Assembly: GCA_963779815.1 (NCBI GenBank)
Contig: CAVZZR010000001.1
Location: 594,588-658,587, forward strand
DNA from: an uncultured Actinomycetes bacterium
Lineage (GTDB): Bacteria > Actinomycetota > Thermoleophilia > Solirubrobacterales > 70-9
Direction: 5' to 3'
Length of the DNA: 64,000 nt
Each line of letters starts with the position of its first letter. The stretch's first letter is position 1. Below, piece after piece: positions 9,640-61,437 of the stretch. Made by a program: the position numbers and the translations under genes. Under the pieces are notes generated by a model. The model ran no database searches, had not been told where the DNA came from, and saw nothing but the letters and a program-made list of their open reading frames with translations.

Positions 9640-9914
9640 CAGCGCTCTCCGACGTAGGGAAGCAGGGCGATTTCGCGCGCCCGCTTCACCGCCACCGAGA
9701 GCTGACGCTGGTGGCGGCGGGAAAGTCCGGTGACCCGGCGCCCGCGCGTCTTCCCCTTGTCGGAGAGGAAGCGGCGCAGCAGGTTCAGGTCCTTGTAGTC
9801 GACGACCTCGGAGTTGACCCGCGTGTATTTCCGAGGGCGGGCGCGATCGGCGCCGCGCCTGCCGCCGCCGCGGCGGCCCGCGGTGCGGGACGAGCTGTCA
9901 GAGGTTCGTGCCAT
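9639..9914 (-). CDS. rpsR: 30S ribosomal protein S18
   Basis: [50 protein letters not shown] is canonical S18. Confidence 0.95.
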
Positions 9915-9975
9915 CGGCGCGAGATGCTACAGAGCGCCGCGATGCGGCGCTCTGTAGTTGCCGGTCAGGCGAGAA

Positions 9976-11014: not shown

Positions 11015-11425
11015 CTAGCGCGGCGCGAACTCCTCCGAGCCGTCGCTCGGCGACGCCGGGGGCGGAGGCGGAGGGACCGGCGGCGGGGACGGCGGCGGTT
11101 CGTAGCTGACGGGCGGTGGCGGCGCGACAGGCGCAGGCTCGGCTGCGGCCTTTGGCTTCGGCCGCTCCTTCCGGGGCCTGCTGCTGATCACATCCCGCCG
11201 CGCCGACCCCGTGGTTCTTTTTGCACCCATGCCGTGCGTTTCGAACCGCAACTTCGGCGCCGGCTCGGCAGCTGGGGCCACTCGCGGCAGACCCACGTCC
11301 TTGCCCAGCGGCGGCGGTTGGGGCGGGCGCAGGAGGCCGGGCAGCGCCTGCAGGGCGAGCAGCACCGCGACCGCGACGATCGCAATTTTGCCGACCCCGC
11401 TCCAGCGGATGCGTACCGTGCCCAC
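11015..11425 (-). CDS. Membrane-anchored proline-rich hypothetical protein
   Basis: N-terminal TM (IAIVAVAVLLALQALPGLL) followed by a Pro-rich low-complexity tail; real protein vs GC artefact uncertain. Confidence 0.35.
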   Translation of the reverse strand: MGTVRIRWSGVGKIAIVAVAVLLALQALPGLLRPPQPPPLGKDVGLPRVAPAAEPAPKLRFETHGMGAKRTTGSARRDVISSRPRKERPKPKAAAEPAPVAPPPPVSYEPPPSPPPVPPPPPPASPSDGSEEFAPR

Positions 11426-11463
11426 CCCGGCCTAAGCCGTGGGAGGCCGCGGGTTCTCCCCCC

Positions 11464-12927
11464 TCAAGTCCGCGCTTTGCGGGCTACTTCGATGTCCTGC
11501 AGCTGGTCGTCGACCCAATCGCCGGGGTTGCGGGAGAAGATGATCTCCTTCAGGCCCTGGGACCAGCGGCGCTTCTGCTCGGGGTCCATCGTCAGCGCCC
11601 GGTAGATCGCGTCGGCCTGCTCCTGGATGTCGAAGGGGTTGACCGAGAGCACGTAGTCGAAGAGCTCGTGGTGGGAGCCGGTGTTCTCGGAGAGCATCAG
11701 GACTCCATCTCTGGTGTTCACCGCCGGCGCCTCCTTCGCCACCAGGTTCATCCCGTCGAAGAGCGAGTTGACCATCAGCAGGTCGAAGTGCTTGTAGCGG
11801 GCGACGGCGTCGTAGAAGTTCTCGTAGATCTTCAGGTCGATCGGCATCCAGTCGGTGGTCCCGTGCCGGTGGTTGACGACGGCGACCAGCGCCTCGATCC
11901 GCTCCAGGTACTCGGCGTACTCGGGCACGTCCTGGCGCGAGGGCTGCAGGTGGGCGATGAAGGTGACCTCTTCGCGGAACTCCGGGTGCTGGGTGAGGAA
12001 GGTGTCGAAGGCGGTGAACCCGCGCAGCACGTTCTTCGAGAGGTCGGCCCGGTCGACGCGGATGATCAGGTGCCGGCGGCGCCGCTCCAGCACCTCGCGC
12101 TCGGCCTCGGCGACCTCGGGCGAGGCCGCCGCCCGCTCCAGCCGCCCGGCGTCGATCCCGAGCGGGTAGGCGCGGGCGATCGTCCGGCCGCGCTGGTGGC
12201 GCACTTCGGCGGCGTGGTAGTCGACCTCGACCCCGTCGAGGAGTTCGTCGCAGCAGCGGAGGAAGTTGATGCAGTAGGCGTGGGTGTGGAAGCCGATGAT
12301 GTCGTTGGCCAGCATCCCCTCGTAGATCGCGCCGCGGATCCGGCTCGGCAGGATCCGCCAGCTGTCCGGCTGCGACCAGGGGATGTGTACGAAGTGGTGG
12401 AGGAAGGCGTCGGGGCGCTCGGCGCGGATCATTCCCGGCGCCGTGTAGAGGTGGTAGTCGTGCAGCATCACCAGCGGGTTCTCCTGCCCCTCGATCTCCT
12501 TCAGGACCGCGTCGGCGATATCCCGGTTGACCGCCTGGTAGCCGTAATCCCAGGCGTCGATCTCCTCCTGGCGGATGTCCGGCGCGTTGGAGATGTCCCA
12601 GAGGTAGTGCTGGATGAACCAGAGAATCGGGTTGGCGATCACGTTGTAGAAGCGGTCGTAGGCTTCGGGGTCGCTGCCGACCAGCCGCACCCGATAGTCG
12701 ATCCCGTCGAGCTCCTGGGAGATCGGCTCGCCCGCCTGCTCGGACGCGGCGACGTCCTCGTCGGTCATCGCCGAGGCGATCCAGAGGGCGTCGCGGTGGG
12801 AGACGAGGCCGGAGAGGGCGGTGACCAGCCCGCCGCCGCCGCGGCGGACCGTGCGCTGCCCGCTCTCGTCGCGCTCGAACTGGAGCGGGCCCCGGTTCGA
12901 GACGATGATCAGCGGCGAAGAGCTCAC
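11464..12927 (-). CDS. otsA: Alpha,alpha-trehalose-phosphate synthase (UDP-forming)
   Basis: 487 aa GT20; LIIVSNRGP, LWIASAMTD, WVHDYHL-like (MLHDYHLY) and MNLVAKE motifs. Confidence 0.9.
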   Translation of the reverse strand: MSSSPLIIVSNRGPLQFERDESGQRTVRRGGGGLVTALSGLVSHRDALWIASAMTDEDVAASEQAGEPISQELDGIDYRVRLVGSDPEAYDRFYNVIANPILWFIQHYLWDISNAPDIRQEEIDAWDYGYQAVNRDIADAVLKEIEGQENPLVMLHDYHLYTAPGMIRAERPDAFLHHFVHIPWSQPDSWRILPSRIRGAIYEGMLANDIIGFHTHAYCINFLRCCDELLDGVEVDYHAAEVRHQRGRTIARAYPLGIDAGRLERAAASPEVAEAEREVLERRRRHLIIRVDRADLSKNVLRGFTAFDTFLTQHPEFREEVTFIAHLQPSRQDVPEYAEYLERIEALVAVVNHRHGTTDWMPIDLKIYENFYDAVARYKHFDLLMVNSLFDGMNLVAKEAPAVNTRDGVLMLSENTGSHHELFDYVLSVNPFDIQEQADAIYRALTMDPEQKRRWSQGLKEIIFSRNPGDWVDDQLQDIEVARKART

Positions 12928-12966
12928 GCCGAAGAGACTAAGGGGTGCCGGGCGTGGGGACGGCGG

Positions 12967-14208
12967 CTAGCTGTCGACGTCGTCGAGCAGGTTCAGCCAG
13001 TCGCGCAACAGGCGCGGCGTCAGGAACATGCGACGGGCGTGCTCCTTGCCCTCGCGGCCGAGCTGCTTGCCCAGGCCGGGGTCGCGGAGGATCTCGAGGC
13101 AGCGCTCGGCGCACTGCGAGGGGGAGTCGACGAGGAAGCCGCTGACCCCGTCCTCGATCTGCAGCGGAATCCCGCCGACGTTGCCGGCGACGGTCGGCCG
13201 CCCCTTCCAGAGCGCCTCGGTGACGGTCAGGCCGAAGCCCTCGCGGATCGACTTCTGCAGGCAGATGTCAGACTGCGACTGGAAGGCGTTGACCTCGATC
13301 GCGCCGACGTTGTTGAGGTTGCTGAGGATTTTGATGTCCTCGTCGCCGTCGGCGTATTCGAAGGTCTTTTGGAAGTACTCCATCCCCTCGGGGTCGTCGG
13401 TGGCCATCGAGCCGACCATCGCCAGCTGCGCCTCCGGCACCCGCTTGGTGATCTCGCGGTAGGCGTCGATGACGCCGATCGGGTCCTTCCAGGGGTCGAA
13501 GCGGGAGACCTGGGTGATCAGCGGCCGGTCGACGTCGATCCCGAACTGGCGGCAGACGAAGGCGGCGTCCTCGGGCGAGAAGGCCATGTTCTTCGGCGAG
13601 AGCGGGTCGATCGCCGGGGGGATGATCCGCACGTCCTCGCGGTGCTCGCCCATCCCGTCGGGGACGTAGTCCTCGAGGTGCCAGACGCTCGCGTCGTACT
13701 CTTCGATCATCGGCAGCAGGCGGCCGATCGGGGCCGGGTTCGGCGTCGAGAGGTCGATGTGGCAGCGCCAGATCCAGCGCGCGCTCTTCGCCCTGGCGCC
13801 GCGCAGCAGCCCGATCGGCTGCGGGTCGTGGACGATGATCACGTCCCACTCGCCCTGCAGGCCCTCGGCGTTGATCTGGTTGATCTCGTCGAAGATCTCC
13901 CACTGTTCGTCGGTCAGCGTCTCCTCGGCCCCCTGCAGCGAGTTGTGGAGCAGCTTGGTCGCGTTGAAGAACTCTTCTTTGCCGAAGATCACGTGCCAGT
14001 GGGCGTCGAGGCCGACGTCCCGCATCAGCGGCACCATCGTGTAGAGGATCTCCGAGACGCCGCCGCCGAAAGCGGTGGCGCTGACGTGCAGCACCCGCTT
14101 GCCTTTGAGCGGCTCCGCGAGCCGGCGGATCTGCTCCGTCAGCTCTTTACCGACGATGTGCGTGTAGTCGGTGAGGGTCTTGTGGCCGAGGGCGACTTCC
14201 TGAAGCAA
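12967..14208 (-). CDS. GT4-family glycosyltransferase, trehalose synthase (TreT)-like
   Basis: 413 aa; GT-B fold; C-terminal EGFGLTVTEALWKGRPTVAGNVGGIP motif of GT4; adjacent to otsA. Confidence 0.7.
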   Translation of the reverse strand: MLQEVALGHKTLTDYTHIVGKELTEQIRRLAEPLKGKRVLHVSATAFGGGVSEILYTMVPLMRDVGLDAHWHVIFGKEEFFNATKLLHNSLQGAEETLTDEQWEIFDEINQINAEGLQGEWDVIIVHDPQPIGLLRGARAKSARWIWRCHIDLSTPNPAPIGRLLPMIEEYDASVWHLEDYVPDGMGEHREDVRIIPPAIDPLSPKNMAFSPEDAAFVCRQFGIDVDRPLITQVSRFDPWKDPIGVIDAYREITKRVPEAQLAMVGSMATDDPEGMEYFQKTFEYADGDEDIKILSNLNNVGAIEVNAFQSQSDICLQKSIREGFGLTVTEALWKGRPTVAGNVGGIPLQIEDGVSGFLVDSPSQCAERCLEILRDPGLGKQLGREGKEHARRMFLTPRLLRDWLNLLDDVDS

Positions 14209-14262
14209 GGCTGGAGTTCTACACCGATGGGCGGCGACATGGCGTCCAGCCGCGTGCCGCGG

Positions 14263-15420
14263 CTATTCGGAGGAGGGGCTGTCGGGCCGCTTCCCGAGCT
14301 TCAGGTCGATCTGCTTCTGCTCGCCGTTGCGGAGGATCGTCAACTTCACCACTTCGCCGGGCTGGTGGGCGGCCACCACTTCGCCGAGGTCGTTCGGGGT
14401 GACGATGTCGCGGTCGTCGACCCGCAGGATCACGTCGCCCCCGGTCGAGTACCGCGCCGCCTGGAAGGTGACTTTGTCGTCGCCCCCCTCGATGCCCGCT
14501 TTCTCGGCCGGGCCGCCGGCGACGACTTCGGAGACGAGGCCGCCGAAGGTGGCGTCGAGCCCGAGCTTGCGCGCCAGCTGTGGGTAGAGCGGCTGGCTGG
14601 AGACGCCGATGTAGGCGTATTCGGCTTCGCCGTCCTCGCGCAGCTGGGCGACCGAGCGCTTGACGGCGGAGATCGGGACCGCGAAGCCGACGCCGTCGTT
14701 GGCGCCCGAGTTGGTCTCGATCTGCTGGTTGATCCCGATCACGTTGGCGCCCGCGTCCAGGAGCGGGCCGCCGGAGTTGCCGGGGTTGATCGAGGCGTCG
14801 GTCTGGATCGCACCGAGGATTTCGAACTGGGTCAGCGACTGCACCGCACGGTCGGTCGCCGAGACCACCCCGACGGAGAGCGACTGCTGCTCGCCGAACG
14901 GGTTGCCGATCGCGGCGACCGGCTGGCCGACGTGAAGGCCGCGGTCGTCGCCCAGGCGAAGCGGGTGCAGGTCGAGCCCGTTCGGCTTGATCTTCAGCAG
15001 GGCGACGTCGACGAAGGGGTCGAAGCCGACGACTTCCGCGGGGACGATGTTGCGGCTGGGGAACTCGACGTAGACCTGGTCCGCCTGCTTGCGCTCGCCG
15101 CTCGATTCGTCGGTGACGACGTGGGCGTTGGTGATGATTTCGCCGCCGTCGTCGACGACGAAGCCCGAGCCTTCGGCGGCCCCCACCGACTTGAAGACCG
15201 AGCGGATCGTCACCACTCCCGGCGAAGCCCGTTCGAACACTTCCTGGGCGTCGAAGCCGGGGCTCGAGGTCTCGATCGCCACCTGAGGTTCCTCCGCCGG
15301 CCTCAGCACCTGGGCGGATTCGCCGCCGCTGTCCGCCGTCCCCGAATCGCCGCTCGAGCCGCAGCCGGCGCTCAGCGCCAGGCAGAGCAGCGTCAAGAGG
15401 ACGAGCGCGCCCCGCTTCAC
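14263..15420 (-). CDS. htrA: HtrA/DegP-family serine protease with PDZ domain (PepD-like), lipoprotein/secreted
   Basis: Trypsin-like triad context (ITNAHVV, DVALLKI, GNSGGPL), PDZ C-terminus; GTG start overlaps the kinase stop (GTGA) at 15417-15420. Confidence 0.85.
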   Translation of the reverse strand: MKRGALVLLTLLCLALSAGCGSSGDSGTADSGGESAQVLRPAEEPQVAIETSSPGFDAQEVFERASPGVVTIRSVFKSVGAAEGSGFVVDDGGEIITNAHVVTDESSGERKQADQVYVEFPSRNIVPAEVVGFDPFVDVALLKIKPNGLDLHPLRLGDDRGLHVGQPVAAIGNPFGEQQSLSVGVVSATDRAVQSLTQFEILGAIQTDASINPGNSGGPLLDAGANVIGINQQIETNSGANDGVGFAVPISAVKRSVAQLREDGEAEYAYIGVSSQPLYPQLARKLGLDATFGGLVSEVVAGGPAEKAGIEGGDDKVTFQAARYSTGGDVILRVDDRDIVTPNDLGEVVAAHQPGEVVKLTILRNGEQKQIDLKLGKRPDSPSSE

Positions 15421-53485: not shown

Positions 53486-54290
53486 TGGGGCACCGGGTCC
53501 CGACGGGGGTGCGGGCGGGACCGCGCCCGCGCCGGACCGCGGTGCGCCGCATCCTCGCCCTCGGCGGCCACGACTTCACCTCGCGCCCGCCTGACCGCGC
53601 GGTCTGCGAGCTGCTGCTGCGGCTGGCCGGCGAACGCGGCGGCGAGCGGCCGCGGATCTGCATCCTGCCGACCGCCAGCGGCGACACCTCCGAGCAGATC
53701 GGCCGCTTCTACGCCGCCTTCGGCGAGCGCTCCTGCGAGCCCTCCGACGTCTCGCTCTTCCGGCTCGGCCGGCGGCCGATGGCGCTGCGCGACCACCTCC
53801 TCTCCCAGGACCTGATCTACGTCGGCGGCGGCAGCCTGGTCAACCTGCTGGCGGTCTGGGAGGCGCACGACATCGCCTCGATCCTCAGCCTCGCCTGGCG
53901 GCAGGGCATCGTCCTCGCCGGCCAGAGCGCCGGCGCGATGTGCTGGTTCGAGGCCGGGATCACCAAGTCCTCGGGCAAGCCGCTGGCGGCGGCCGGGCTC
54001 GGCCTGCTCTCCGGCAGCCTCTGCGTCCACTACAACAACGAGCCCGAGCGCCGCGCCGCCTACCTCGAGGCGGTCGGCGAGGGGATGCCCGAGCGGCTAC
54101 GGCCTCGACGACTACGCCGGCCTGCTCTGGGAGGGAGAGGGACGCCCCTCGGCGGTGACCGCCCGCCGCGGCGCCCGCGCCTACCGCGTCAGCCAGCAGC
54201 GCAGGCGGCGTCGCCGAGTCGCCGCTTGCCGGCCCGCTTCCTGCCGGCCCCGGCTCCCGCCGCGCTGCGCGAGGACATCGCCGAGTTCCG
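53485..54290 (+). CDS. Peptidase S51 family protein, copy 2 (tandem paralog), at least 1 frameshift; 3' end approximate
   Basis: RRILALGGHDF, LSQDLIYVGGGSLVNLL, AGQSAGAMCWFE, HYNNEPERRAAY; ATG overlaps the stop of copy 1 (ATGA). Confidence 0.65.
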
Positions 54291-54418
54291 CCGGATCAAG
54301 ACGATGCGCAAAACGAGCCGGCTGGCTCGGCTGAAGTCACAAAGCTTCCTCAACCCCGCCTCCGAACATTTGCTTTTGTGCGCGAGCTGTTGCAACTTTT
54401 CGTCTACAGTCTGTCATC

Positions 54419-54864
54419 ATGGAGGCACTGAAGATGGAGCGGCCGATGGACAACTGGAACGACGACCGGCTCGACGAACTGAACCGGCGCATGGGGGACG
54501 GCTTCACGAAGGTAGATGAGCGGATCACGAAGGTAGACGAACGGTTCGACCGGGTCGACGAGCGGTTCCAAGCAGGTAGACGAACGGTTCGACCGGGTAG
54601 ACGAGCGGTTCAAGCAGGTAGACGAACGGTTCGACCGGGTAGATGAGCGGTTCACGAAGGGTAGACGAACGGTTCGACCGGTTGGACAAACGGTTCGAGC
54701 AGGTCGCCATCCGCGAGAGCGTCACCGAGGTGAAAGAAAGCGTCGCTCGGATCGACCGAAGGCTGGAGCGGTTCGAAACTCGGATGGAGCAGCGGATGGA
54801 CCGGTTTACCTGGGCCTTCGTCGCGTTGGTGCTGGCCTTGCTGACGAGACGGTTCGTCAACTAG
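54419..54864 (+). CDS. Small C-terminally membrane-anchored coiled-coil protein built from about 9 heptad repeats (VDERFDR / VDERFKQ), 2 frameshifts inside the repeats
   Basis: MEALKMERPMDNWNDDRLDELNRRMGDGFTKVDERITKVDERFDRVDERF...VDERFDRLDKRFEQVAIRE...MEQRMDRFTWAFVALVLALLTRRFVN*; single +1 insertions at ttcCaagcag and aagGgtagac split it into three listed ORFs. Confidence 0.55.
54506..54706 (+). repeat. In-frame 21-nt (7-codon) tandem repeat, about 9 copies (42-nt super-period), inside the gene above
   Basis: ggtagacgaacggttcgaccgg / gtagacgagcggttcaagcag units repeated directly. Confidence 0.8.
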
Positions 54865-55946
54865 AGCTTCCAGCGGAAGCCGAGCGCGCTCGATCGCCGG
54901 CTCCAGCGGGCTGCTCGGCAGGCCCGGCCTGCGTCGCCTGCTCTGGGTCGTTGTAGCCGCCCGGGGCGACGTCGTTGGGCGTGTCCGGGTGGAAGATCGA
55001 GGCCAGGTACTGGATCTGGCCGCGGCCCTGGCCGAGCTCGGTCTGGCCGCCGCCGTAGGCGCCGATCCCGCGCTCCTCGCAGTAGTCGTAGGCGGCGAAG
55101 AGGTCGCTGATCGGGCCGAAGCGCGAGGGCTTGACGTTGACCGTCTTCGGCGGCGACCAGGGCATCGCCTCGATGTCGGCGATCGAGTGGATCGGCGCGT
55201 CCCAGGTGACCCGCTCGGAGACCGGGTCGAGCAGCGGTTTGGTCTCCTCGGTGACGTCGGGGTCCTCGAGCCAGGCGTCGGGGAAGGTCTCGATCAGCTT
55301 CGCGTAGAGCTCGGGGTCGGTCTCGACGTCGACCGGCGTGCCTTTGTAGAAGCCCTTGAGGTCGAGCGAGTCGACGGCGCCGGTCTCCGCCAGCGCCGCG
55401 ATCAGCTCGTCGTCCCAGTCGTTGGCCGGGTCGAGCTTGAAGCGCAGGGTCGGGTAGACGGCAAGGCGCGCAAGCAGCGGCTCGATCGAGGAGCGCTCGC
55501 CCGCTTCGAAACCAGCCAGCCGCATCGAGTTGACGAAGTTCAGCGGCCGCGGCTCCCGCCCCAGCGCCTCGGCCAGGTTCGGTCCCAGCCTGGCGCAGCG
55601 CCAGGTCCAACGCCGCCGACTCGAAGGCCCAGCGCCGGTAGTCGCGGCGAGACGTCCCCGCGCTCCGGCGCCCCGGCAGGAAACAGATCGATCCCATCCA
55701 GCCGCTCGGAGAACTCGGCAAAGGTAAAGCTGCCCGCTCCAGCCCCTCCGGCGGCCCATGGCTCTGCTGGCCGATGTGGTCGATAGCGTCATAGACGACG
55801 TCCTCGCCGATCCCCTCCTCGACCACCGCCGCGAAGTCGAACGATCGTCGTCAGCCGTTCAAACTCGCCGACGGTGATCTCAAGCCCCTCGAACCCACAG
55901 CTCTCGATCTCCAGCGGCAGATCGGCGATCGCGTCGAAGCTGGCCA
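54857..55946 (-). CDS. Enolase-superfamily (mandelate racemase / o-succinylbenzoate synthase-like) protein, 1-2 frameshifts
   Basis: N-terminal TIVRLRGGGEEGIGE (GxGE capping motif), long C-terminal barrel-like region; family call tentative. Confidence 0.4.
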
Positions 55947-56030
55947 TGCTTGGGAGCGTAGAGGAGCCGGGAGAGGGGTCTCCGGACCCTCCCCGCTGTT
56001 GTCCGGAGGCCCCCCTCCCCCGGCTCCTCC

Positions 56031-57502
56031 CTACAGCGCCACCCGAAGAGTCTTCAACTCCCGATCCGAACCCCCCCGGACATACCCGCCGTGGTCAAGG
56101 CTTTCCCGGATGAAGTCAAGAGTCTCCGGAGTAAGCCGCTCGCCAGGAAGCACATTCGGAATCCCCGGCGGATAAGCCGCCAGCCCCTCGGCGGCAACCC
56201 GCCCCGCCGCAGCGTCGAAGGGAACAACCTCCTGCGGCCCAAGGAACGCTTCGCGCGGCGTCAGCACCAGCTCTCCCCAGGGCGGCGCCGGCGCCAGCTT
56301 CTCGTCCGGCGCCCCCGGCGTCTCCTCCAGCTCGGCGACCGCCTTGCGCAGCCCCTCGACCAGCCGCTCGCCGCTCTCCTCCGCCCGCTCGCCGACGCCG
56401 AAGATCGGCGACGACGACGTTGCCCGAGTAGAGCTCGAGGTCGATCTCGCTGACGTGGAAGGCGGTCTTCCAGAGCCGCTGGGCGCTGGAGCCGGTGCCG
56501 CGGACGTCGATCCCGAGCCGCAGCGGGTCCCAGCCGGCGACGCCGGGCCGTCCGACCATCCGCTCGTCGAGCACGTCGAGCCCGGGGATCTCGCGGATCT
56601 TCTCGCGCGTCTTCGCCAGCCCCGCCATCGCCTCGCTCAGCATCTCCTCGCCGTGCACGTACATGTGGCGGCGGGCGGCGTCGAGCGAGCCGGCGAGGAG
56701 GCCGCTGGGGCTGGTCGTCTCGACCAGGCTGACGCAGCGGTCGACGACGGCGCCGTCGATGCGGCCGCCGCGGCCGAGGTGCAGCATCGCCGACTGGGTG
56801 AGGCTGCCGACGATCTTGTGGGTCGAGGAGGTGACGAGGTCGGCGCCGCAGGCGAGCGCGTCGGTCGGCAGGTCGGGGTGGAAGTGGAGGTGCGCGCCCC
56901 AGGCCTCGTCGACGACCAGCGGCACGCCGCGCGAGTGCGCGACCTCGGCCAGCGCCGGCGACATCGGCGCAGGCGCCGAAGTAGGTCGGGGAGACGACCA
57001 TCGCCGCCACCGCCTCCGGGCGTCTCGTCAAGCGCCGCCGCCAGCGAGTCCGGCGTCAGCCCGTGGGCGATCCCCAGCTCGGGGTCGAGCTCGGGGGCGA
57101 CGAAGGTCGGCCGCATGCCGCTGAGGACGAGGCCGTCGATCACCGAGGAGTGGACGTTGCGCTGGACGACGACCCGGTTGCCGCCGTGGGCGAGCGCCAT
57201 GCAGGCGGCGTGGTTGCCCTGCGAGGCGCCGTTGCCGAGGAACCAGGTGCGGCCGGCGCCCCAGGCCTCGGCGGCGAGCTGCTGGGCCTGCTGGAACGGC
57301 GTCGGCTCGGGCCCGACGTCGACCCCCTCGGTGACCGAGGGGATGTCGTTGCGCAGCCCCGCTTCGCCGACCAGCGCCAGCTCGCCGGGTCGGCGCCGAT
57401 GCCGCCCTTGTGCCCCGGCACCTGGAAGCGGCCCGGGTCGCGCTTCGCGTAGGCGAGCATCGCGTCGACGTAAGGAGTGGACTCCTGACCCTCTCCTGGC
57501 AT
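56031..57502 (-). CDS. PLP-dependent Orn/Lys/Arg decarboxylase (major-domain family), about 3 frameshifts
   Basis: PGHKGG, SSTHKIVGSLTQSAML (PLP-Lys), NGASQGNHAA, C-terminal FIRESLDHGGYVRG. Confidence 0.7.
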
Positions 57503-57596
57503 CGATCCGAGTCTACGGGTCGGCTTCAGGACGACTGGACAAATCCGCGGCCGATCTTTGGACAGAGCCGACGATTCGCTTGGTGGAGAATCCACC

Positions 57597-59000
57597 GATG
57601 CAGCACACCCGCCTGGGCTATTGGATCGAGGAGGCCGGCAAGGCCGCCCCGCAGCCGCCGCTGAGCGGCGAGCGTCGAGGCCGACGTCCTCGTCGTCGGC
57701 GGCGGCTACACGGGGATGTGGAGCGCCTGGTACGCGAAGCAGCTGCGAGCCCGAGGCGCGGGTCGTCCTGCTCGAGGCCGAGCCGGTCTGCGGGCGCGGC
57801 CCGAGCGGCCGCAACGGCGGCTTCTGCAACGCGATGTGGTTCTCGCTCGCTTCGATGCGCGAGCGCTGGGGCGACGTGCCGGCGCTGCAGGTGGCGCAGG
57901 CGGCCGAGCAGGCGGTGGCGCGGATCGGCGCCTTCTGCGAGGAGCACGCGGTCGATGCCTGGTTCCGTCCCGCCGGCTACGTCCAGGTCTCGACCGCACC
58001 GGCCCACGACGGCGCATGGGGCCGGGCGCTGCAGGCCTGCCGCGAGCTCGGGGTGCCGGAGATGCTGCAGCCGCTGAGCGCGGCCGAGGTAGCCGAGCGG
58101 TGTCAGTCGCCGGCCTTCCGCGCCGGCGTCGTCTCGCCGACCTCGGCGACGGTGCAGCCGGCGCGGCTTGCGCTGGGGTTGCGCGAGCAGCTGCTGGCGG
58201 CGGAGGTGGAGGTCTACGAGGCCTCGCCGGTCTCCTCCTTTCGGGAGAGCGGCGACGGCGTCGAAGCCCGTACCGCCTCCGGCTCGGTCCGCGCCGCCCG
58301 CGGCGTCCTCGCGATCGGCAGCGCCGCCAAGGGTCGCCGCGGCCCTCTGCGCGGGCGCCTCACCGTCGCCTCCTCCCACATCGTCCTCACCGAGCCGGTG
58401 CCCGACGTGCTCGAGCAGATCGGCTGGACCGACGGCGACTGCATCACCGACTCCCGTTCCCTGCTGCACTACTTCCGCACCACCCGCGACGGTCGCATCG
58501 CTTTCGGCTGGGGCGGCGGCCGGATCGCGATGGGCGCCCGCACCAAGGGCCGGGCCGAGGTCGACCCCGAGGTCGTCGCCGCGGCAACTAAGCACCTCCA
58601 CGACTACTTCCCCGCCCTCCGCAACCGCCGCATCACCCACGCCTGGGGCGGCCCGATCGACGCCTCCCCGACCCACCTCCCCGCCGTCAGCACACTCCCC
58701 CAGGGCAGCGCCTTCGTCGCCGCCGGCTACACCGGCAACGGCGTCGGCCCCTCCAACATGGTCGGCCGCACCCTCGCCTCCCTGGCCCTCGACGAAGACG
58801 ACGAGCACACCCACCTCGCCTTCGTCGACGCCAAGACCCCCCGCGTCCCCCCCGAGCCCTTCCACTGGATCGGCGGCGAGGCAATCCGCCTCGGCATCCT
58901 CAAGAAAGAGGAGGCAGAGATGCAAGGCCGCCAGCCCGGCCGCGTCTCCTCAGCCGTGGCGAAGATTCCGGAGCTGATCGGCTTCCACATCGGCCGCTGA
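57597..59000 (+). CDS. FAD-dependent oxidoreductase (DAO/glycine-oxidase family), 2 N-terminal frameshifts
   Basis: Dinucleotide fold DVLVVGGGYTGMWSAWYA, then VVLLEAEPVCGRGPSGRNGGF; 480-aa body in one frame. Confidence 0.7.
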   Translation, partial: DAAHPPGLLDRGGRQGRPAAAAERRASRPTSSSSAAATRGCGAPGTRSSCEPEARVVLLEAEPVCGRGPSGRNGGFCNAMWFSLASMRERWGDVPALQVAQAAEQAVARIGAFCEEHAVDAWFRPAGYVQVSTAPAHDGAWGRALQACRELGVPEMLQPLSAAEVAERCQSPAFRAGVVSPTSATVQPARLALGLREQLLAAEVEVYEASPVSSFRESGDGVEARTASGSVRAARGVLAIGSAAKGRRGPLRGRLTVASSHIVLTEPVPDVLEQIGWTDGDCITDSRSLLHYFRTTRDGRIAFGWGGGRIAMGARTKGRAEVDPEVVAAATKHLHDYFPALRNRRITHAWGGPIDASPTHLPAVSTLPQGSAFVAAGYTGNGVGPSNMVGRTLASLALDEDDEHTHLAFVDAKTPRVPPEPFHWIGGEAIRLGILKKEEAEMQGRQPGRVSSAVAKIPELIGFHIGR

Positions 59001-59032
59001 CTGCCCTGCTTGCCACTTGTAGTTCAGGAAAT

Positions 59033-59118
59033 GGTTAAGACATTGCAAAAGACAATGTTCTGTCCACAGGCGCCCTATACTGGTGGTTAGGGCATTGCAA
59101 AAACCAATGTTTTAACCA
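59033..59118. promoter_or_regulatory. Two 33-bp direct repeats (GGTTAaGaCATTGCAAAAgaCAATGTTcT / GGTTAgGgCATTGCAAAAacCAATGTTtT), each holding a CATTG-N7-CAATG palindrome, flanking a TATACT -10-like box; candidate AbiEi operator/promoter
   Basis: Read from the sequence; AT-rich 130-bp gap immediately upstream of abiEi. Confidence 0.55.
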
Positions 59119-59128
59119 CCTGCTCTCC

Positions 59129-59689
59129 ATGCCAGGACAGATCTACAACCACATAGCCACACTCGCCGCTGACAACTACGGCTTCATCACCACCGATGAG
59201 GCCGGGGCGGCGGAAATCAATCCCCACCGACTGCTCGAACTAGCGCGTCGCGGCCAGATCGAGCGCCGTGGGACCGGGCTTTACCGCGTTCCGTTGATTC
59301 CGCCGACGCCGCTCGACCCGTATCGAGAGGCAACCCTCTGGCCCCGTGGCGTCGAAGCAGTGATCTCCCACGAAACGGCTCTCGACATTTACGAGCTCGG
59401 AGACGCCAACCCGGCCAAGATCCACATCACCGTTCCGCGCGCTCACCGCCCCCGCCGTCAGGTGCCGGTTCAATACCGCCTCCATCGTGAAGACCTCCAA
59501 GGCAAGGAGACCACCTTCCACGAGGGCATTCCGATTGTCACCGCGGTCAAAGCGATCCGTCAGGCTCGGCGACTAGGCCCTGCTCTACTACGTCAGGCAA
59601 TCGAAGAGGGGGAGCAGCGCGGACTTATTTCCCGAGCGGAGGCGGAACAGCTACGGGACGAGACTCAGGTCGGTGGAGTGACGCGATGA
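59129..59689 (+). CDS. abiEi: Type IV TA / abortive-infection AbiEi-family antitoxin (wHTH transcriptional regulator)
   Basis: 186 aa; N-terminal wHTH GFITTDEAGAAEINPHRLLELARRGQIERRGTGLYR and VISHETALDIYELGD typical of AbiEi_4; 4-nt overlap with the downstream gene. Confidence 0.75.
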   Translation: MPGQIYNHIATLAADNYGFITTDEAGAAEINPHRLLELARRGQIERRGTGLYRVPLIPPTPLDPYREATLWPRGVEAVISHETALDIYELGDANPAKIHITVPRAHRPRRQVPVQYRLHREDLQGKETTFHEGIPIVTAVKAIRQARRLGPALLRQAIEEGEQRGLISRAEAEQLRDETQVGGVTR

Positions 59690-60549
59690 GCGGGCAGGTC
59701 CTCCCGGACCGGGGACCGAATAGGCGCCCTCGAGAGACGCCCACCCAGAAGGCTCATCTCGAGCGCCTGATCGCTCACTACGGCAGCTCGATCGGGGTTG
59801 CGCCGGGCCGGGTTCGCCGCTGGCTCTCGGTAATGGTCTTGCTGGGAGCGCTCGATCGGGTGCGCGAATCCGACCCGGTTTTCCTGCTCAAGGGGGGCGT
59901 GGCGATCGAGCTACGCCTGCGCGGTCAGGCAAGGGCTACGAAAGACGTAGACCTCGTCTTCTTCGGCGATCCGGAGGATCTCGCGGACGATCTCGATCGC
60001 GCACTCGCTGAGCCCTACGCCGAGTTCAGCTTTCAACGGAAGGCGATCGGAGAGGGGGGCGGAGGGCGCTTCCGGCGCCTGGAGATCAAGCTCATGTTTC
60101 GAGGCCGCAGCTGGGCCACGCTGAGGCTCGATGTCGCCGCCCCTGATAGCCGATCGATCGATGGCGAATTCGTGCCGGCGATCCCCCTCGACGAATTCGG
60201 CATCGCCGGCCCGGAGGCAATCCCTTGCCTCTCGCTGCGCTACCAGATCGCCCAAAAGCTCCACGCTGTGACCGAGCGCCTTCCCGATGGTGACAACGAG
60301 CGCTTCCGGGACCTGATCGATCTCATCATCTGCCGCGACCTGGTCGAGAGGATGGACGAGGTGAAAAGGGCTTGCCGCGACACGTTTGCAGCCCGCGGTA
60401 AACACACCTGGCCACCGGAGCTCGTCGTTCCCGACATCTGGACCGAGCCATATGCAGCCCTGGCAGAGGAGATGGACTTTCCGATCCCGGCGGTCGAGGA
60501 GGCTGCTGCGGAGGTGCGAGATCTGATTACCGCGATCGACGCCGCGTAG
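59686..60549 (+). CDS. abiEii: Nucleotidyltransferase AbiEii/AbiGii toxin (DUF1814) family protein
   Basis: 287 aa; FLLKGGVAIELRLRGQARATKDVDLVF NTase motif (hG[GS] ... DxD). Confidence 0.75.
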   Translation: MSGQVLPDRGPNRRPRETPTQKAHLERLIAHYGSSIGVAPGRVRRWLSVMVLLGALDRVRESDPVFLLKGGVAIELRLRGQARATKDVDLVFFGDPEDLADDLDRALAEPYAEFSFQRKAIGEGGGGRFRRLEIKLMFRGRSWATLRLDVAAPDSRSIDGEFVPAIPLDEFGIAGPEAIPCLSLRYQIAQKLHAVTERLPDGDNERFRDLIDLIICRDLVERMDEVKRACRDTFAARGKHTWPPELVVPDIWTEPYAALAEEMDFPIPAVEEAAAEVRDLITAIDAA

Positions 60550-60556
60550 CGCCGCC

Positions 60557-61437
60557 CTAGGTAGCCGCGGGCGCCCCGGCCGGGACCCGGTGCCGACCCC
60601 GCCCTCCTGTTCGGGCCGGACGCTGGTCATCTTTTCGGCCCGGCGCTGCTGCCAGGTGGCGAGGCCCATGGTTGCGCAGGTGAAGAAGAAGAGGATCATC
60701 GCGATCACGTTGACCTCGACCGGGATGCCTCGCTGGGCGGCGCCGAAGATGTAGAGGGGGAAGGTGACCGTGGTGCCCGAGTTGAAGTTGGAGATGACGA
60801 AGTCGTCGATCGAGAGGGCGAAGGCGAGCATCGCGGCGCCGAAGATCCCGGGCATGATCAGCGGCAGGGTGACGAGGCGGAAGGTCTCGAAGGCGTTCGC
60901 GCCCAGGTCCTTCGCCGCCTCCTCGAGGTTGCGGTCGAAGCCGATCAGCCTGGAGCGGACGACGACGACGACGAAGCTGATGCAGAACATCACGTGGGCG
61001 ATCAGCAGCGTCTGGAAGCCGAGGCTGAAGCTGCCGATCAGGAGGAAGAAGGAGAGCAGGGCCGAGCCCATCACCACCTCGGGCGTCGCCATCGGGATCA
61101 CGATCAGGAAGTTGGCGGCGCGGCGGCCGAAGAACTCGTAGCGGACCAGCGCCATCGCCATCAGGGTCCCGATCACGGTCGAGATCACGGTCGCCAGGAC
61201 CGCCAGCTTCAGGCTCGTCACCAGAGCTTCGTTCAGCTCCGGGATCCCGAAGGCGTTGCTCCAGTGTTCCGTCGTGAAGCCGACCCAGTTGAAGTTGTAG
61301 CGGCCGGCCGGGTCGTTGAACGAGAAGCCGAAGATCACCGCGATCGGGATCAGCATGTAGAGGACGACCAGCACGGCGACGATCTGCACCGCGTGCTCGC
61401 GCAGCCAGCGCCAGGCTCCTCCGCCGCGACCGTCCAT
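60557..61437 (-). CDS. potC: Polyamine ABC transporter permease (PotC/PotI-like); 3' end likely affected by a frameshift
   Basis: 6-TM ABC-2 permease with EAA-like loop EEAAKDLGANAFETFRLVTLPLIMPGIFG. Confidence 0.75.

Follow-up and report, generated by a model that had tools for sequence, protein, structure and literature searches.

Does a pair of short genes lying within an otherwise coherent polyamine locus constitute a toxin-antitoxin (TA) system, and are the repeats in front of it the site through which the antitoxin controls its own expression? This question is raised by a 64,000-nucleotide stretch of DNA from an uncultured Solirubrobacterales bacterium (contig CAVZZR010000001.1, positions 594,588 to 658,587; hereafter the window, meaning the whole stretch that was analyzed), in which abiEi (59129-59689, plus strand) encodes a 186-amino-acid COG5340/AbiEi-family antitoxin and putative autorepressor, and abiEii (59686-60549, plus strand) encodes a 287-amino-acid DUF1814 nucleotidyltransferase of the MenT3-like branch. 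The two genes share one strand, with the antitoxin gene first, and overlap by 4 nucleotides (nt) at an ATGA, the coordinates and lengths being exactly those given in a preliminary description of this DNA. Based on the data presented below, we consider it likely that the locus is a bicistronic AbiE-family TA operon, composed of a COG5340 antitoxin and a DUF1814 nucleotidyltransferase toxin, with autoregulatory operators. The pair is an ordinary, apparently intact AbiE module from an already well-studied family and not a new kind of system, and "abortive infection" is, in the case of AbiE, a family name.

Profile searches placed both proteins in the families to which they had initially been assigned. 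AbiEi matched Pfam AbiEi_4 (PF13338; E 2.9e-10, residues 9-55, 40.5 bits against a cut-off of 25) and, over its full length, the PADLOC AbiEi model (E 3.3e-58, residues 5-178), and AbiEii matched Pfam AbiEii/DUF1814 (PF08843; E 1.9e-21, 77.5 bits against a cut-off of 22.5) and PADLOC AbiEii (E 8.7e-63); neither protein had a match in NCBIfam. AbiEi consists of an N-terminal winged helix-turn-helix (approximately residues 4-53) followed by a C-terminal domain. Comparison of AbiEi with the Protein Data Bank (PDB) by sequence alone returned nothing meaningful. We therefore relied on fold: an AlphaFold2 model derived from an alignment of 32 homologues (predicted local distance difference test, pLDDT, 89.6; predicted template modeling score, pTM, 0.83) was compared with PDB structures using Foldseek, and the top match was AbiEi of Streptococcus agalactiae (6Y8Q; E 5.9e-8, template modeling score 0.60), followed by Rv2827c of Mycobacterium tuberculosis (1ZEL; E 4.6e-4). 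Because both of these fold matches span the whole of AbiEi, with approximately 200 aligned columns, they support the two-domain COG5340 fold. The model also contains a loop at residues 88-97 (YELGDANPAK), located between the fifth helix (81-87) and the fourth strand (98-102), in which Y88, L90, and D92 are conserved at 90% or above and P95 is invariant. The conserved antitoxin loop known to contact the toxin active site comprises D85-E86-I87 in AbiEi and, between helix 5 and strand 4, H98-I108 in MenA3. By its position in the model, the 88-97 loop is a candidate antitoxicity loop.

The toxin is closest to the solved structures of MenT3/TglT, with 6Y5U and 6J7S matching residues 13-286 at approximately 3e-27. 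The LKGG...D.D motif that had been noted in the toxin is present as L68-K-G70-G71 and D87-V-D89, and the key residues G70, G71, R83, T85, K86, D87, D89, K191, R206, and D212 are all kept. In the alignment, R76-T-S78-K79-D80-F-D82 of MenT3 corresponds to R83-A-T85-K86-D87-V-D89 of AbiEii, and MenT3 K189, R205, and D211 correspond to K191, R206, and D212. The roles of the catalytic and acceptor residues of MenT3, including S78, are taken from PMC11375011, and that of the acceptor position (S78/T39/T65) from PMC11375011 and bioRxiv 10.64898/2026.01.19.700257. An earlier assignment of the MenT3 phospho-acceptor to the serine of "KGGS", which is a valine in AbiEii and would have spoken against control by phosphorylation, was dropped, since PMC11375011 places S78 in R76-T-S78-K79-D80, equivalent to T85.

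For the wider comparison, 440 AbiEi homologues were found, and the comparison set consisted of 80 metagenomic loci with AbiEi homologues (43-83% identity) together with loci L082 and L103. The abiEii gene lies directly downstream of abiEi in 53 of 68 homologue loci, and toxin conservation was counted over the abiEii genes adjoining 42-51 of the AbiEi homologues: G70, R83, and D87 are conserved in 51 of 51, K191 and D212 in 42 of 43, and the T85 position is occupied by threonine in 50 and by serine in one. Judged by alignment, AbiEii keeps the full catalytic set together with the Ser/Thr phospho-acceptor T85, and its length of 287 amino acids is also that of its counterparts in L103 and L004. 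The ratios of nonsynonymous to synonymous substitution rates (dN/dS) for abiEi and abiEii against the orthologues in L082, L103, L003, and L004 were 0.10-0.13, although the synonymous distance (dS) was saturated in all comparisons except those with L082. These low ratios show both genes to be under purifying selection, and, together with the intact catalytic residues, they are indirect evidence of a toxin that would arrest growth and an antitoxin that would relieve it.

The region in front of the pair holds the second half of the question. The gap upstream of abiEi (59001-59128) is 128 bp long, with a GC content of 0.47 compared to 0.71 for the whole window. Two direct repeats of 47 nt (59032-59078 and 59084-59130) are 74% identical and lie 52 bp apart from start to start, their 33-nt cores being identical at 26 of 33 positions. 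Each repeat is an imperfect palindrome around CATTG-N7-CAATG, a motif found at just two places in the 64 kb, each of them in the abiEi leader, and not at all in 100 dinucleotide-preserving shuffles. The first palindrome, R1 (59032-59066; TGGTTAAGACATTG-caaaaga-CAATGTTCTGTCCA), has 14-nt arms that are complementary at 10 of 14 positions, compared to 11-13 of 14 in its orthologues in L082, L002, and L003, and is centered at approximately -80 from the abiEi ATG, over the -35 region of the putative promoter. The second, R2 (59082-59120; GGTGGTTAGGGCATTG-caaaaac-CAATGTTTTAACCACC), has 16-nt arms complementary at 13 of 16 positions (with 14-nt arms, 59084-59118, 11 of 14; p=0.017 against shuffles) and is centered at approximately -28, 52 bp from the center of R1, over the predicted transcription start and the leader. 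Between them lies a -10-like hexamer, TATACT (TANNNT; 59076-59081, plus strand), from which we infer a transcription start near 59086-59089. R1 and R2 together provide four half-sites within -9 to -97 of the ATG, and the distance of approximately 52 bp, or about five helical turns, places both on one face of the DNA. The paired repeats of about 33 bp bracketing TATACT that had been described earlier are therefore real.

We subsequently compared this layout across the homologous loci by scoring dyads with 14-nt arms against per-locus shuffles, a screen that replaced a stricter one (12-nt arms, at least 10 matches) which had missed the window's own repeats. In 31 of the 63 loci with enough upstream sequence, where approximately 3 would be expected by chance, the highest-scoring dyad no more than 62 nt from the start codon was individually significant (p<=0.05), and in all but one of these 31 its center fell at -18.5 to -28.5. 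The nine closest loci share the complete arrangement of two palindromes with a TANNNT between them, the box being located at -47 to -55 from the ATG and the palindromes being spaced, center to center, by 51-52 bp in the six closest and by 53-57 bp in L005-L007. The operator role proposed at the outset thus held up when the repeats were sought in homologous loci, and the conserved two-palindrome layout supports a candidate autoregulatory operator.

More distant homologues are organized differently. A TANNNT ends 6-10 nt before the start codon in 44 of the 54 distant loci (L008-L076), compared to a null mean of 5.3 and maximum of 13, and in these 44 it sits in the right arm of the palindrome. 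This implies that distant AbiEi homologues are probably expressed from a leaderless promoter overlapped by one operator of different sequence. In the nine close loci there is neither a Shine-Dalgarno sequence nor a leaderless -10 box, and the window's clade appears to have lost the leaderless layout and now to carry a leader without a Shine-Dalgarno sequence. The half-sites differ by clade (GGTTA..CATTG, GGATA..CCATG, GGACA..AAAGGGC, GGACAAACTAGC, GGACA..TAACGC, and GCTTGAAATTGCAC, or, in short form, CATTG, CCATG, AAAGGGC, CTAGC, TAACGC, and TTGCAC), always with an A/T-rich center, and residues of the AbiEi N-terminal domain vary clade by clade alongside them. We also observed, in one distant AbiEi clade (L008, L009, L010, L015, L021, and L026), a conserved second palindrome, AGTTGC-N5-GCAACT, that differs from the proximal operator, precedes it by a long distance (approximately 95-110 nt before abiEi), and adjoins a TTGACTTGAAA motif.

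Given that R2 falls in the predicted leader, the palindromes might instead act mainly as RNA, with an R2 hairpin controlling translation or mRNA stability in place of, or in addition to, an operator function. The RNA fold of R2 has a free energy of -24.8 kcal/mol (z = -3.6), a stability reached by none of 200 shuffles, the hairpin ends 8 nt before the start codon, all three mismatches of the R2 DNA become G-U pairs on the sense strand, and the lack of both a Shine-Dalgarno sequence and a leaderless -10 box in the nine close loci would fit such a role. However, any DNA palindrome also folds as RNA, three G-U pairs out of three have a probability of approximately 1/8 for transitions, R2 of L082 contains an A-C mismatch besides G-U, and a search of Rfam at E<=1 returned two chance-level matches only and no family. 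Moreover, R1 carries this palindrome too, yet it precedes the only -10-like box and so would not be transcribed, and the palindromes that overlap the leaderless -10 box in 44 of 54 distant homologues are mostly outside the RNA. Because R1 is symmetric yet would not be transcribed, and because most distant palindromes overlap the -10 box, we rank an RNA-level role as a minor and rather improbable rival to the DNA operator.

A further alternative is that the repeats belong to the flanking DNA, either as a terminator or regulatory site of the adjacent DAO-type FAD oxidoreductase gene (FADox; 57558-59000, plus strand) or as terminal repeats or an attachment site of a mobile element. They begin 32 nt past the FADox stop codon, the left arm of R1 and the right arm of R2 form a 14-nt inverted pair, and in other relatives this stretch between the genes holds large hairpins. 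On the other hand, the repeats are absent from the junction of the abiE-less relative L083, indicating that they belong to the abiE module and not to the oxidoreductase gene, and homologues in unrelated genomic contexts also have a palindrome, equally far from the abiEi ATG. Nor is there a copy of the motif at the right end of the insert (the two matches being the only ones in the whole window), a T-run terminator at the repeats (the one weak terminator-like site found by the scan is inside potC), or an integrase or transposase adjoining the module in the window. We regard an origin of the repeats in the flanking DNA as very improbable.

Operators of an abiE module thus being the preferred reading of the repeats, current knowledge of related systems suggests how the module might work. 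In S. agalactiae, AbiEi recognizes a pair of 23-bp inverted repeats, 3 bp apart, in the promoter of its own operon and represses it, and Rv2827c, which binds to four repeats located between -1 and -131 relative to its start codon, likewise represses its promoter (PMC7319586). On the toxin side, antitoxin-induced auto-phosphorylation inactivates MenT1 and MenT3 (PMC11375011), and S. agalactiae AbiEii is auto-phosphorylated at T65 on antitoxin binding, according to a preprint that reclassifies AbiE as type VII (bioRxiv 10.64898/2026.01.19.700257). MenT3 adds CMP to tRNA 3'-CCA ends (PMC11375011), and activity of the MenT type extends tRNA acceptor ends and blocks aminoacylation. By analogy with S. 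agalactiae AbiE, MenAT3, and Rv2827c-Rv2826c of M. tuberculosis, the winged-helix domain of AbiEi would bind the four half-sites of R1 and R2 and, by covering the -35 region and the transcription start, keep the operon repressed. The C-terminal domain of AbiEi, together with the 88-97 loop, would contact AbiEii and bring about auto-phosphorylation at T85, which would switch off nucleotidyltransferase activity. Upon loss of antitoxin control, unphosphorylated AbiEii would be expected to add nucleotides to tRNA 3' ends and thereby arrest translation. The "type IV" label under which the pair had first been placed is challenged by the 2026 preprint proposing type VII (bioRxiv 10.64898/2026.01.19.700257).

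Several observations weigh against an autoregulated, active TA operon. A scan for the sigma-70 consensus found no full -35/-10 promoter at the abiEi leader, and there is no Shine-Dalgarno sequence before the abiEi ATG, so the promoter and transcription start are predictions. R1 of the window is degenerate, pairing at 10 of 14 positions compared to 12 of 14 in L082, and may therefore bind weakly. The covariation of half-sites and protein across clades resembles that of co-evolving repressor-operator pairs but is confounded by shared ancestry. The mechanistic steps rest on homology to proteins with which identity is low, approximately 15% for S. agalactiae AbiEi and approximately 30% for MenT3. 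Autoregulation is, in addition, not universal in the family, since Rv1044 (MenA3) showed no binding to the DNA in front of its own gene, where the promoter was inactive in E. coli (PMC7319586). Lastly, in the abiE locus of the closest relative, L082 (14908-16064, minus strand), AbiEii starts with GTG and lacks, through an in-frame deletion, residues 42-129 and with them the catalytic core, indicating that the module is dispensable and can decay.

The L082 deletion, which represents a typical decay route for TA modules, raises the possibility that the module in the window is itself a decaying or domesticated remnant, with a toxin that is no longer active in vivo and an AbiEi that survives as an orphan transcription factor. 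L082 retains an intact AbiEi and two near-perfect operator copies in spite of its deleted toxin, the right arm of R1 in the window is degenerate, and abiEii was not detected directly downstream in 15 of 68 homologue loci. The AbiEii of the window, in contrast, is full length and has all catalytic residues, its gene shows the low dN/dS reported above, and its ATGA coupling to abiEi is intact. We consider a remnant unlikely, and return to an intact AbiE operon as the preferred reading.

The genomic context was examined by mapping the window proteins on 80 potC loci. To its left, FADox is preceded by an Orn/Lys/Arg decarboxylase gene (56031-57829, minus strand), and to its right, outside the module, lies potC (60557-61437, minus strand; Pfam BPD_transp_1), which is convergent with FADox and is followed by potB and potD on the minus strand and then the start of potA. 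The left junction (58998-59031, plus strand) consists of the FADox stop codon TGA (58998-59000) and a 31-nt spacer to R1, and the right junction (60550-60559) of 7 nt, CGCCGCC, between the abiEii stop codon TAG (60547-60549) and the potC stop codon CTA (60557-60559). The closest genomes are uncultured Solirubrobacterales metagenome-assembled genomes (MAGs). In the empty site of L083, the convergent potC and FADox overlap at their stop codons (CGC-TAG-G), the FADox TAG overlapping the potC stop (CGCTAGGTCGC), whereas the window has approximately 1.56 kb (58998-60556) between CGC and CTAGG, giving FADox a new TGA stop; the left junction, CGC/TGAC, is alike in the window, L082, L103, and L003. 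The distance from potC to FADox is 69 bp in L083 (whose PotC is 95% identical), 191 bp in L084, below 400 bp in approximately 15 others, and 0.8-9 kb in the remaining potC loci. Since potC abuts FADox in L083, L084, and approximately 15 further relatives, the abiE module is an insert, and the synteny comparison bears out the initial proposal that it splits a coherent polyamine locus.

The same junction is occupied by other genes in relatives. It holds a Fic/DOC protein in L085 (11512-12723) with a close homologue in L090 (8187-9344), a HipA and HTH_3 pair in L089 (7186-8806), an AbiEi_4-REase_MTES_1575 fusion in L107 (10915-11862), proteins of 299 and 394 amino acids without a Pfam match in L086 (11302-12201) and L088 (10980-12164), respectively, and an aldehyde dehydrogenase in five or six loci. 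In L082, the site carries, besides abiE, a split DDE_Tnp_1/DUF772 transposase and a 551-amino-acid fusion of an N6_N4 DNA methylase with Mrr_cat (11392-14783), both between abiEii and potC. The potC/FADox junction is thus a variable cargo hotspot for TA, defense, and insertion sequence (IS) genes in relatives, a neighborhood that would be no more than circumstantial evidence for a role in phage resistance. At several "empty" sites (L084, approximately 9780-9960; L094, approximately 2830-2990; L121, L098, and L104), we also observed a near-perfect hairpin of 100-150 bp between the convergent stop codons; these hairpins are unrelated in sequence between genomes and might serve as bidirectional terminators or represent small mobile elements of palindromic structure.

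The preliminary description had regarded the module as a lower-GC island whose position was consistent with recent mobile acquisition. Its base composition is atypical at third codon positions, where GC content (GC3) is 0.68 in abiEi and 0.77 in abiEii compared to 0.88-0.97 in FADox, potB, potC, and potD, which supports a foreign origin; its overall GC content of 0.63, however, is not below the 0.63-0.67 of the pot genes. No integrase or transposase adjoins the module in the window, and no terminal repeats were found at the ends of the insert. A search for a target-site duplication at these ends found only the 5-nt GCCGC at either end, a match without significance at a GC content of 70%. AbiEii had three matches at 27-30% identity among plasmids and none among phages; the known plasmids and phages thus contain no close relative, and no vehicle was identified. 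Orthologous abiE genes are found at the same junction (with CGC/TGAC or TAAC at the left end) in L082, L103, L002, L003, L004, and L044, and same-site orthologues occur in at least seven lineages with 76-95% identity, approximately as diverged as the flanking genes. The more distant of these share the left junction exactly, yet their proteins are just 76-82% identical and dS exceeds 1. The insertion is therefore not recent, and this part of the earlier account is not supported. Either the insertion is old and has been lost repeatedly, or the cassette has been exchanged among relatives via conserved flanks.

The two lines of evidence could be joined into a single, tentative scenario, which we consider possible but doubtful as a whole, consisting of an integrase-less cargo-exchange hotspot at the potC/FADox stop codons and a duplication of the operator in which the promoter moved between the copies. 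In the first part, TA and defense cassettes (AbiE, Fic, HipBA, methylase-Mrr, and AbiEi_4-REase) may be swapped by homologous recombination via conserved flanks in Solirubrobacterales. In the second, an ancestral single operator on a leaderless promoter may have been duplicated, yielding a leadered transcript without a Shine-Dalgarno sequence whose leader is the second operator, and control could then operate at two levels, through a DNA operator and an RNA hairpin.

The condition of the neighboring genes had also been taken as part of the picture, with intact abiE genes standing amid frameshifted ones. The frameshifts are true as sequence: the Orn/Lys/Arg decarboxylase gene is broken up into three or more reading frames, the DAO oxidoreductase has lost its frame at the N-terminus, and approximately 13 net frameshifts at 54.1-57.7 kb, in DNA with a GC content of at least 0.70, are private to the window when compared with the concordant sequences of L082 and L083; the frameshifts at 54080-57750 also disrupt genes at 54-56 kb. 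The pot operon has a single indel, close to position 60585 in the tail of potC, while its remaining 3.4 kb (60.6-64.0 kb) are free of them. This indel (net +5 nt compared to L082 and L083) puts the last dozen or so codons of potC, near 60583-60590, out of frame. The PotC proteins of relatives all end in ...PAGAPAAT*, a peptide that the window reads in another frame. As a consequence of the tail indel, the native potC stop is missed and the open reading frame (ORF) runs 239 codons further, antisense through abiEii. We therefore rejected the resulting 508-amino-acid "PotC" ORF (59911-61437, minus strand) as a real overlapping gene. Clustered as they are in the GC-richest DNA, the frameshifts are probably indel errors of the assembly, and the "MFD" names of the closest relatives may denote a long-read MAG project. 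The contrast of intact genes and pseudogenes is accordingly most likely an effect of sequencing quality; in either case, it provides no evidence of selection here and should not be taken as biology before the assembly is checked. Separately, the window at 54400-54860 has a GC content of 0.59-0.61 and ORFs of short tandem peptide repeats on both strands (VDERFDRVDERF... on the plus and RSSTRSNRSST... on the minus strand).

The value of these results is mainly one of annotation, in that a MenT3-like AbiE module, intact and preceded by a well-defined candidate operator, is present in an uncultured soil Solirubrobacterales lineage. The approximately 60 loci, with at least six half-site variants, single and double operators, and leaderless and leadered promoters, constitute a natural-variation series for AbiEi operator specificity, and the results also document a small hotspot for cargo between two core genes that converge. 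The operator series and the hotspot are neat but unsurprising, and the current understanding of AbiE/MenAT systems is unchanged by them.

Among known systems, the AbiE family was first described in Lactococcus, and phage resistance has been shown for the AbiE of L. lactis, whereas none was found for S. agalactiae AbiE against 32 coliphages. The S. agalactiae AbiEi-AbiEii pair resembles that of the window in being bicistronic, in having T65 at the position of T85, and in providing the top structural match for the antitoxin (6Y8Q), but identity to 6Y8Q is only approximately 15%, and its promoter has one pair of 23-bp repeats compared to the two palindromes 52 bp apart in the window. MenA3-MenT3 (Rv1044-Rv1045, TakA-TglT) provides the closest solved toxin and an antitoxin of similar size, and MenT3 R76, S78, K79, D80, D82, K189, R205, and D211 all have equivalents in AbiEii; the differences are that the acceptor is a serine in MenT3 and a threonine in the window, that H207 is an arginine in the window, and that, while Rv1044 showed no binding to the DNA upstream of its gene, operator-like repeats are clear in the window. 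Rv2827c-Rv2826c (MenAT4) likewise has a COG5340 antitoxin upstream of a DUF1814 toxin, and the fold of the antitoxin (1ZEL) matches, although Rv2827c is 295 amino acids in length compared to 186 for AbiEi. The repeats at the rv2827c promoter overlap it and are 23 bp long, with 13-bp gaps inside the pairs and 4 bp between the pairs, whereas the window has 14-16-nt arms, 7-nt A-rich spacers, and 13-17 bp between the palindromes (13 with 16-nt arms) that hold the -10 box. Nevertheless, it is the rv2827c promoter, with its two pairs of inverted half-sites, four in all, within approximately 130 bp, that the four half-sites of the window resemble most.

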